Shown here one piece after another: positions 1,686 to 4,844 of a stretch of DNA of 64,000 nucleotides (position 1 is the first letter of the stretch; each line of letters starts with the position of its first letter). Below the pieces are notes generated by a model. The model saw nothing but the letters and a program-made list of their open reading frames with translations. It searched no databases and had not been told where the DNA came from. The stretch is from a virus (Duplodnaviria; Heunggongvirae; Uroviricota; Caudoviricetes): IMG/VR virus record IMGVR_UViG_3300045988_154477; one strand, 5' to 3'. The translations under genes and the position numbers were made by a program.

Positions 1686-2583
1686 GCACTGGAAAAACAT
1701 TACTATTTATAAACTTTCTCGTGAGGCGGATCTGACCGACTTAGAAGATAAAAAGAAAATGATCCTTTTCACGCCATGCGGTAGTCAGGATATGGCCAAG
1801 TTCGGTTTTGTATCTCCATTTGGTGATAATTCCGAAGTTATCGCTATGCATGGAAATGGTTTTATCCTTGTTGAAGCAAAGCGCGAAACAAAAATTCTTC
1901 CCCCGCCGGTTATCCAGCGAGCTATTCAAGAAAAAATTGAAAAACTTGAGCAAGAACAAGCGCGTAAACTGAAGAAAACAGAGAAGGACTCCCTGAAAGA
2001 CGAAGTTCTGCATTCTCTTCTGCCACGGGCTTTTTCAAAGTTTTCTGTTATCCAGGCGATCTACGACGGTTCAACTAAACGTATCTATATCAATGCCAGC
2101 GCGCGGCAGGCAGAGGATATGCTCGCGCTTATGCGTAAGTCTCTGGGTTCTCTTCCTGTTGTTCCCCTGAGTGTTGAAAATCCCATTGAATTAACGCTGA
2201 CCGACTGGGTACGTGATGGTAGTGCTCCACAGGGATTTCAAATGGGGGATGCGGCAGAACTTAAGGCAGTGCTTGAGGATGGCGGTATTGCCCGGGTGAA
2301 AAAGCAGGATTTGGGAAGCGATGAAATTTCCACACACCTGGAAGCTGGCAAGCTCGTCACTAAGTTGGCACTCGACTGGCAGAACCGCATTAAATTTACA
2401 CTGGACCATAACTTCAGCCTTACCAGCGTCAAATTTGCGGATGAATTGCTTGAGCAGAACTCTGATATTGATAGTGAAGATGTTGCGCAGCGACTGGACG
2501 CAGATTTCTTCCTGTTGACCAGTGAAATTTCGTGCCTGGTTGATGCTCTGGTAAATGCCCTTGGTGGAGAGGCTAAGCAGTGA
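1678..2583 (+). CDS. hrdC: RdgC-like recombination-associated protein (P1 HrdC)
   Basis: Long colinear similarity to E. coli RdgC as recalled ([73 protein letters not shown]); start moved to ATG 1678 where the homology begins. Confidence 0.85.
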
Positions 2584-4844
2584 AAGAGCTGTGCTATGGA
2601 TCTGTTTGCAGTGGAATTGAAGCCGCGAGTATTGCCTGGGAACCGTTGGGTATGCGTCCGGTGTGGTTTGCTGAAATCGAGTCTTTTCCATCTGCCGTTC
2701 TTGCGCACCGCTGGCCCCATGTCGCCAACCTTGGCGACATGACAAAACTTGCCAAAAAAGTCCTGGCTGGGGAAATCGAATCCCCTGATGTGCTCGTCGG
2801 GGGTACGCCTTGTCAGGCATTCAGTATCGCGGGCTTACGTGGTGGGCTTGATGATGAACGCGGCGCGCTAACTTTGAAGTATGTGGAGCTTGCAAATGCA
2901 ATTGACGACAAACGGTCTGAGTCCTTCCTCAAACCGACAGTTATCGTCTGGGAAAATGTCCCAGGAGTCCTGTCATCGGCAGATAACGCCTTCGGATGTT
3001 TCCTTGCCGGATTGGCTGGAGAAGATGCGCCATTTGAACCAGGTGATCGACCTGAATCAGGAAAAAGTAACGCGTTCTGGCGGTGGGATGGCAAAACCGG
3101 TTGCCATGCTCCAAAGTGGCCGCAGTGTGGTTGTATTTATGGACCGCAGCGAAAGGTGGCCTGGAGAATCCTTGATGCCCAATACTTCGGAGTGGCACAA
3201 CGACGCCGACGCGTGTTTGTTGTCGCAAGTGCTCGAACAGACCTCGATCCCGCAACGGTACTTTTTGAGTTCAAAGGCGTGCGCCGGAATATTGCGCCGA
3301 GCCGAAAAAAGAAGGAAATCGCTTCCGCCATTATTGCAAATGGCGCTGCAATCAGTGGCGAAAGCCTAAATCCATGCCTACACGCTGACATGCCACCCGG
3401 TATGAAATCGACGAAAGCCGTAAACGCTTTCAGGATGGCAGCATTTGGGGAATATATTGACGATGAAACCGCATCGACAGTAAAGGCAAGAGATTTTAAA
3501 GATGCCACTGACCTTGCCGTTTTTAGCAGCACAGGAGCAGGTTTTTGGTCAGAAGGGCATGGTACATTGCGGGCACGTGAGCAAGAAAGCCATGAGCATC
3601 TTGTTACATTGGCTTTTCCTGAGCGTATGAGCGGTACACAACATGCTGCAACTAAGAATACTTCACCATCTCTAATGGCTAAAAATCCAACAGCTGTTTG
3701 CTATGAAGTAAGAAACGCAGAAGTAGCTGTCCGCCGTCTTACCCCTGTCGAATGTGAAAGGCTGCAAGGTTTTCCTGATGGGCATACGTTGATCCCGACG
3801 GAAAAGCGTAAAAAAGTTAATTCAGATGAACTGGCATATCTTCGCAATCACTATCCAGATTTAAGCGAAGAAGAGGCCGCGATGCTTGCAGCTGACGGAC
3901 CGCGTTACAAAGCGATCGGCAATAGTATGGCAATACCAGTAATGCGCTGGATTGGCGATCGGATTACTAAGTCCGTATGTCGGCAGAAAGAAGGAAGTGA
4001 AACAAAAGAGCGAAAAGTTAAACCAGCGGCAGAATTCGAACGGTCCATATTCAAATGGGCTGGTGGAAAATTTGGTGTTCTGGAACAAATCTTTCGCTAT
4101 TTGCCAGAAGGGAAGCGCCTGATTGAACCTTTCGTTGGTGGCGGAGCTGTCTTCATGAATGCCGGATACCAGGAAAATCTGCTAAATGATGTGAATGCTG
4201 ACCTGATTAACTTTTACAAGACTCTGCAACGCGAGGCGCATTCACTTATCACTCTGGCACATCGTTTCTTCCAGGACTACAACACACAGGAAGGATACCT
4301 GGCAGTACGGAATGCGTTTAACAAACAAGTCTATGATGATTTACATCGCGCAGCGGCGTTTTTGTTCCTGAACCGACATTGTTTTAACGGATTGACGCGT
4401 TACAACCAGGCCGGTGAGTTCAATGTCGGTTATGGGAAGTATAAAACTCCGTATTTCCCATTACAGGAGATGGAAGCCTTCCTCGGTGCGGAAGGGCGGT
4501 CTGAGTTTGTATGCGGTGATTTTGCAGCGGTGATTGAAGCTGCCGGAGAAGGAGATGTCATCTTTTGCGATCCGCCGTATGAACCGCTTCCAAATACAGA
4601 GGGATTCACGAACTATTCCGGTCATGACTTTAAGTTTGAAGAGCAAAAACGCCTGGTGTCTCTGTTGACGGATGCTCATCGTCGAGGTGCAAAGGTTCTC
4701 ATTACTAACAGTGGCGCGCCAAACATCAGAGAGCTTTATCATGACAGTGGCTTCAGAGTGGAACCTCTTTTTGCCAGACGTTCTGTGTCTTGTAAGGGGG
4801 ACACTCGAGGTGTAGCTCATGACGTTTTGGGTATATTGCTCTAA
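2580..4844 (+). CDS. dmt: bifunctional DNA methyltransferase: N-terminal C5-cytosine MTase fused to C-terminal N6-adenine (Dam-like) MTase
   Basis: 754 aa; C5-MTase motifs CSGIEAAS and [12 protein letters not shown] (PCQ); C-terminal Dam-type motifs [13 protein letters not shown] and DPPY (FCDPPYEP); GTG start overlaps hrdC stop. Confidence 0.9.

Follow-up and report, generated by a model that had tools for sequence, protein, structure and literature searches.

Most C5-cytosine DNA methyltransferases (MTases) have a single target-recognition domain (TRD) of 80–150 residues. The enzymes of several Bacillus phages follow a different plan, in which tandem TRDs give one methylase multiple specificities (PMC8936443, PMC12707154). 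Phage P1 encodes another MTase, Dmt (gene dmt, formerly dam), which the P1 GenBank record describes as a "bifunctional DNA methyltransferase" acting on N6 of adenine in GATC and "perhaps" on C5 of cytosine. We analysed the gene corresponding to dmt in a stretch of 64,000 nucleotides from a virus of the Caudoviricetes (IMG/VR record IMGVR_UViG_3300045988_154477; one strand; this whole stretch is called the window below). What may be new in this gene is its C5 half, in which a putative row of four interchangeable DNA-recognition cassettes occupies the place of the TRD.

The gene lies at 2580–4844 on the + strand as one uninterrupted open reading frame (ORF), which starts with GTG, encodes 754 residues and stops with TAA at 4842–4844. 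The product shares 746 of its 754 residues with P1 Dmt (AAQ14041; 99% identity, eight substitutions); at the DNA level, identity of the region is 99.4% to phage P1 and 99.7% to the P1-like phage JL22. This full-length near-identity is accompanied by conserved synteny and by operators at homologous positions: the uhr-hrdC-dmt operon, the operators Odmt and Oban and a stop codon lying within an operator are all found as in P1. The gene is the known, annotated dmt of a P1-like phage-plasmid (Punavirus). The original prediction held that a single polypeptide carries both a C5 and a Dam-like MTase, with C5 motifs including the catalytic PCQ in its N-terminal half and Dam-type motifs in its C-terminal half. 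This description is accurate, as PF00145 (DNA_methylase) and PF02086 (MethyltransfD12), the two Pfam domains named for checking it, match the N-terminal and the C-terminal part of the ORF, respectively, and as PCQ (2808–2816), KWAGGK (4053–4070) and DPPY (4569–4580) all lie in the expected halves; because the gene is the annotated dmt of P1, the finding of a fused methylase was already known. The features of the gene are the following:

2580–4844, + strand: dmt, fused C5-cytosine / N6-adenine DNA methyltransferase (ORF, Pfam, NCBIfam, identity to P1 Dmt)
2601–3302, + strand: C5-MTase catalytic core, motifs I–VIII, catalytic Cys78 (PF00145, alignment with M.HhaI)
2601–2627, + strand: C5 motif I, SVCSGIEAA (motif location)
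2799–2816, + strand: C5 motif IV, GGTPCQ, the first part of a motif stretch at 2799–2834 (motif location)
2946–2966, + strand: C5 motif VI, VWENVPG (motif location)
3198–3218, + strand: C5 motif VIII, QRRRRVF (motif location)
3303–3731, + strand: variable target-recognition region, residues 242–384, between motifs VIII and IX (replaced in P7 and other alleles)
3348–3422, + strand: cassette X, core NPCLHAD (cassette comparison)
3429–3524, + strand: cassette B (cassette comparison)
3525–3614, + strand: cassette U (cassette comparison)
3618–3710, + strand: cassette V (cassette comparison)
3732–3941, + strand: C5 motifs IX (3732–3779) and X (3906–3941), with an insert of about 30 residues between them (motif location, alignment)
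3969–4037, + strand: Lys/Glu-rich linker between the two enzymes (AlphaFold2 pLDDT below 50 for residues 470–498)
4038–4832, + strand: Dam (D12, alpha-class) N6-adenine MTase domain (PF02086, TIGR00571, E. coli Dam structures)

For the family, 65 subfamily members found through gp12 of the Vibrio phage CP-T1 were aligned; they are encoded by phages and prophages of Vibrio, Enterobacter, Salmonella, Citrobacter and other genera. The length of the variable region ranges from 49 to 274 residues across this alignment and is 142 residues in the window. These regions are built of units of about 23–45 residues that recur in different proteins, and 224 unique variable regions resolve into 140 arrangements of 29 seed cassettes. 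An unsupervised all-against-all BLAST comparison revealed shared units in swapped order in 49 protein pairs. A single core with the pattern small residue-T/C/S-L/V/I-x-A/T/S (for example HPTLNQS, ASTVKAR or SPTLRAG) occurs in every seed unit, and this TL-type core corresponds to the conserved Thr-Leu of C5-methylase TRDs. The array of the window reads X-B-U-V, four cassettes of about 25–32 residues, each with a TL-type core. Cassette B is the commonest in the family (118 of the 224 unique variable regions) and can stand alone, in a variable region of 49 residues (P0203); the P7 type is also a single-cassette member, with 62 residues. Cassettes U and V are also found in unrelated members of the family, placed elsewhere in their arrays.

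P1-like elements exchange the variable region and the Dam half independently of each other. In the variable region the P1 and P7 proteins are unrelated, whereas their flanks are almost identical. P7 Dam (AAQ07538) and other P1-like alleles share with the window the C5 core, motifs IX and X, the Dam half and the genetic context; P7 differs by its 62-residue single-cassette region in place of the 142-residue X-B-U-V array, and other alleles differ by an A-B or a six-cassette array. In the plasmid collection the C5 core is present in 497 records and the P1-type variable region in 257, and P1-like elements hold at least four variable-region alleles. The Dam half comes as two visibly diverged alleles (compared at 4038–4832 with P0005, P0101 and P0109; one segment reads KWVGGKFSELPTVLEH in one of the two), the second of which assorts independently of the cassette region: for two cassette-region types and the two Dam alleles, all four combinations were seen. 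As the Dam alleles combine freely with the cassette-region alleles, recombination must occur inside the gene. From these patterns we propose, tentatively, that the C5 half of the natural P1-type Dmt is active and multispecific, each of X, B, U and V directing a different target, and that cassettes are swapped among P1-like phage-plasmids; this full proposal is possible, though somewhat less likely than not.

The original methylase genes of SPR, rho11s, H2 and phi3T were compared with the Dmt family. Their variable regions give significant local matches to some of the gammaproteobacterial ones, with a best E-value of 3e-7 (database of 41,000 residues), as illustrated by the modules SPTLTTMGGGHREPKIA against SPTLNRMGGGQREPCV and EPAFTVNTIDRHGVA against EVSFTLNTTDRHAVA. 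Like Dmt, these four are orphan phage enzymes in which the core is conserved and short TL-core modules follow one another between motifs VIII and IX. They belong to another C5 subfamily, with FSGIG as motif I where the Dmt subfamily has CSGIE; the Dmt subfamily, in contrast to that of the Bacillus phages, is found in Gammaproteobacteria hosts, draws on a much larger number of cassette types and frequently occurs as a fusion to an adenine MTase. In the literature searched we found no report of multispecificity for any member of the Dmt subfamily and none of multi-TRD methylases outside Bacillus phages, an absence that is not proof.

Within the subfamily, the closest relative of the C5 half that is a stand-alone protein is gp12 of Vibrio phage CP-T1; it aligns with the C5 half along its full length at 44% identity and follows the same cassette principle. 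In CP-T1 (1862–3861) the C5 gene overlaps by 4 nucleotides a downstream gene for a beta-class N6/N4 MTase (PF01555). The product of this second gene, gp13, was considered as an unfused Dam partner and rejected, since it is of the beta class and has no meaningful similarity to the Dam half. Elsewhere the C5 subfamily is fused to adenine MTases of two unrelated families, PF02086 and PF05869, the latter in Salmonella, Enterobacter and Lelliottia; together with the CP-T1 gene pair, these fusions indicate that a cytosine methylase has repeatedly been paired with an amino methylase, the partners being non-homologous. About ten 50%-identity clusters probably possess both halves, judged from their lengths and from their bit scores against the full-length query. 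E. coli Dcm, which targets CCWGG, is also a C5 MTase, but the C5 half of Dmt is not its orthologue: this relationship was rejected, as the NCBIfam Dcm subfamily model NF007772 gave 21.5 bits against a cut-off of 710.

The catalytic part of the C5 half is well conserved. PF00145 matched in two stretches (E 1.1e-36; best at residues 8–135; 127.4 bits against a cut-off of 22), and the NCBIfam dcm model TIGR00675 matched with E 1.1e-34 (120.6 bits against 100.65). Motifs I, IV, VI, VIII, IX and X were located in the canonical order and all align with M.HhaI; motif I is the variant CSGIE, common to the whole subfamily in the 65-member alignment. The same alignment has 74 invariant columns, all of which are matched by the window sequence. 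The C5 half of the window allele appears free of decay, and in the natural allele it is probably an active enzyme and a putative former of 5-methylcytosine (m5C). That it is active is something we infer, because no report of m5C made by Dmt was found. If so, the C5 half would methylate the phage DNA at one or several cytosine-containing sequences, so that the progeny would be protected from type II restriction in the next host; such restriction evasion is plausible, and the model for it would be the multispecific methylases of Bacillus phages.

One residue next to the active site sets laboratory P1 apart. In both P1 records, AF234172 and AF234173, residue 74 is Trp (VLVWGTPCQ), whereas the window, P7 and all natural alleles examined read VLVGGTPCQ. 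Codon 74, at 2799–2801 of the window, precedes the catalytic Pro-Cys. The sequence GG is found at this position in 371 of the 390 family proteins fetched, most of the others having a small residue, such as AG, and none having W; G74 is also invariant in the 65-sequence alignment. A Trp in this place is likely to impair C5 activity in the laboratory P1 lineage, which would explain why this activity stayed a "perhaps". It is speculative that the G74W change was selected for by E. coli K-12 restriction systems that depend on m5C.

Several variants of the gene interrupt or shorten it. RCS47-type alleles (dmt of RCS47 / Ro157c2YLVW, P0096) contain an intein of 341 residues that separates Pro77 from the catalytic Cys78 and has Hint and LAGLIDADG domains. 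Its junctions are GGTP/CFTAGH...VVHN/CQAFS (slashes at the boundaries), the equivalent site in the window lies between 2810 and 2811, and the intein matches an insertion of about 1 kb in the DNA hits. A reading of the deletion dmt(del)MB as a C5 lesion was rejected, since it is in the Dam half that the shortened protein departs from the normal sequence. An internal late promoter, LPdam2, is predicted in the record of P7 at 3067–3085 (window 3800–3830), upstream of motif X. Its –22 box is aagtttctt in P7 and aagttaatt in the window, and no such promoter is annotated in P1.

Taken together, we consider it highly probable that the window carries the dmt of a P1-like phage-plasmid, encoding an orphan enzyme in which the Dam half would serve the GATC sites of pac and an intact C5 half, with its X-B-U-V array, would be active and protective. 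A number of observations weigh against the C5 activity or its multiplicity. In the sample, cassette X was seen solely in P1-type alleles and has no relatives outside them. Bacillus phage enzymes carry inactive 'pseudo' TRDs, and the number of cassettes is therefore an upper bound on the number of targets. An AlphaFold2 run on the full protein, with the 65-sequence alignment, modelled both catalytic cores with confidence and gave pLDDT below 40 for residues 232–384, so that it is uninformative on the cassettes, and a sequence search of PDB with the cassette region alone returned no match even at E 10; for these two reasons we present multispecificity as a reasoned hypothesis. The core of the E. 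coli Dcm TRD, TLSARYYKDGAEILI, and that of cassette B can be aligned in register; the alignment is weak (z 2.9–3.7 against shuffles), and a CCWGG-like target for cassette B is put forward as a lead. The wording of the GenBank note on C5 methylation stops at "perhaps", and a literature search, with REBASE outside its scope, found no report of m5C made by P1 Dmt, an absence that is not proof. A common frameshift-truncated variant (P0001, 123 member sequences) is a C5-only protein of 473 residues that ends in the linker at ...CRQKEGK (window about 3990–4000); some records annotate dmt as two genes, and P1vir is listed with split genes dmt-A and dmt-B (PMC10695390). Finally, a genome-wide CRISPRi screen scored dmt as non-essential in ordinary hosts (PMC10695390).

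Three other explanations were considered. If the Dam half alone worked, the C5 half would be a relic or inactive in vivo, a dead N-terminal extension; the hesitant GenBank wording, the lack of an m5C report in the literature searched, the truncated and split variants and the normal growth of laboratory P1 despite its Trp74 would all fit. We judge this improbable, as the window has G74 and six catalytic motifs, as dN/dS against P7 (from small counts) is 0.21 for the C5 core, close to the 0.14 of the Dam half, and as an intein has been kept at the catalytic Cys in one lineage. In addition, P1-like alleles exchange the recognition region but keep the core almost unchanged, as expected of a working enzyme selected for new specificity. 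A C5 half that is active but monospecific, its four cassettes building one large recognition domain, is a better candidate, though still a rather unlikely one. The 142 residues of the variable region are comparable in size to a single TRD of the usual kind, the AlphaFold model gives no sign of separate subdomains, and A-B is a frequent fixed pair. This explanation does not account readily for the one-cassette members (P0203 and the P7 type), for cassettes in swapped order and at varying array positions, for a TL-type core, the hallmark of one TRD, in every cassette, or for the alignment of single cassettes with single Bacillus phage modules. Lastly, the fusion could be an artefact, with two separate enzymes as the true products, encoded by two ORFs or arising through an internal start, as the frameshifted or split forms in some records, including dmt-A and dmt-B of P1vir, and the internal LPdam2 promoter predicted in P7 might suggest. 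This is very improbable indeed: the frame is uninterrupted in the window and in more than 100 protein clusters of 754–762 residues, fusions of the C5 family to adenine MTases recur with PF02086 and PF05869, and the –22 box of LPdam2 is different in the window.

The Dam half of the enzyme, in our preferred reading the partner of an active C5 half, is readily assigned. PF02086 matched residues 493–725 (E 1.1e-56; 192.8 bits against a cut-off of 22) and the NCBIfam dam model TIGR00571 scored 249.8 bits against 114.85 (E 3.7e-74). Residues 487–751 align end to end with the E. coli Dam structures (PDB 2g1p and 4gbe; E 3e-58). As in E. coli Dam and DpnM, with which the domain shares the alpha-class D12 fold, the motifs follow the order KWAGGK (residues 492–497), EPFVGGGAV (residues 516–524; 4125–4151) and DPPY (residues 664–667). 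The positions that we take to be opposite K9, L122, R124 and Y138 of E. coli Dam are identical in the Dmt alignment, and those presumably opposite Y119, P134 and R137 read F, G and K. Against NF008152, the equivalog model of E. coli Dam, the score was 244.4 bits, below the cut-off of 441; by sequence, the Dam half is a member of the Dam family and not an orthologue of the host Dam, from which it also differs in being fused behind another enzyme, encoded by a phage and controlled by a repressor.

Methylation of GATC by P1 dmt is stated in PMC12707154 and PMC10695390. As P1 packaging requires methylated GATC at pac, dmt is essential in Dam– hosts (2025 review, PMC12707154, citing Sternberg and Coulby 1990). 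The link to a GATC-dependent pac site that had been predicted from the window is supported by this published work and by the presence of pac in the window:

33657–33845, + strand: pac packaging site inside pacA, known as substrate of the Dam half, with 4 + 3 (+1) TGATC(A/G) elements (GATC density, P1 annotation of pacA and pac)

This is the densest GATC cluster of the window (8 per 200 bp, the eighth GATC at about 33838), and the matching region of P1 is annotated with pacA and the pac cleavage site. The site lies about 31 kb downstream of dmt, compared with about 24 kb in P1, and the element of the window therefore has extra DNA in between. The Dam domain methylates GATC, a step established for P1, and pac cleavage, and with it packaging, requires the GATCs of pac to be methylated; a phage-borne Dam half makes this independent of the host Dam.

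The surroundings of the gene are those of P1:

1313–1329, + strand: C1 operator Odmt (Op68), which controls the uhr-hrdC-dmt operon (one mismatch to the consensus; equals 1814–1830 of the P1 record, offset 501)
1329–1358, + strand: predicted sigma-70 promoter Pdmt (position transferred from the P1 annotation, 1830–1859)
1401–1685, + strand: uhr, first gene of the operon (P1 annotation)
1678–2583, + strand: hrdC, RdgC family (PF04381 RdgC, E 5.6e-98)
4835–4862, no strand assigned: bivalent C1 operator Oban-ab (Op72), over the dmt stop and the ban promoters (consensus matches, P1 annotation)
5518–5590, 5596–5668 and 7299–7371, strand not given: three tRNA genes, as in P1 (Rfam scan)

For uhr, the Pfam search gave no match. 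The start codon of dmt overlaps the TGA stop of hrdC as GTGA, and GGAGAGG stands seven bases 5' of the GTG; because of the overlap, translation of dmt is probably coupled to that of hrdC. At the other end of the gene, ATTGCTCTAATAAATTT (4835–4851) matches the C1 operator consensus without mismatch and contains the stop codon TAA, just as had been predicted, and the second half-operator, at 4846–4862 on the – strand, has 2 mismatches. Matches to this consensus number 14 in the window against 0.19 expected by chance. The twelve others, with 1–3 mismatches, start at 1313, 14894, 18518, 18567, 20659, 32838, 37112, 37576, 37659, 39697, 49885 and 53736; judging by their consensus matches, they are the sites that the C1 regulon of a P1-like genome is expected to have. 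As dmt is the last gene of the C1-repressed uhr-hrdC-dmt operon, synthesis of its product would be confined to lytic growth, when repression is lifted. Downstream of dmt lie the ban operator, a dicF-like stretch, tRNA genes, plp, upl and tciABC. The stretch annotated as dicF-like in P1 is conserved at 4959–5060, where an Rfam scan found no family at the gathering score; the scan found the three tRNAs alone. No nuclease gene occurs among the neighbours of dmt (uhr, hrdC, the operator, the dicF-like stretch and the tRNAs), which makes Dmt an orphan methylase, as was proposed at the outset, rather than a member of a restriction-modification pair with an adjacent cognate endonuclease.

If the multispecific reading of the C5 half is true, the CSGIE subfamily, as it occurs in phages of Vibrio, Enterobacter, Salmonella and other Gammaproteobacteria, would amount to a large system of TRDs used in combination. 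It would parallel the SPR/phi3T enzymes on the Gram-negative side, with a far greater choice of cassettes, and would offer a stock of short, portable modules for DNA recognition by C5 methylases. The G74 of the natural allele gives a concrete reason why work on laboratory P1 may have missed m5C for decades. Nearly 500 plasmid records, from Escherichia, Salmonella, Klebsiella and Shigella and including an mcr-1 plasmid, contain P1-like elements; by swapping cassettes, these phage-plasmids would re-tool their anti-restriction spectrum, which would explain how they cross restriction barriers.

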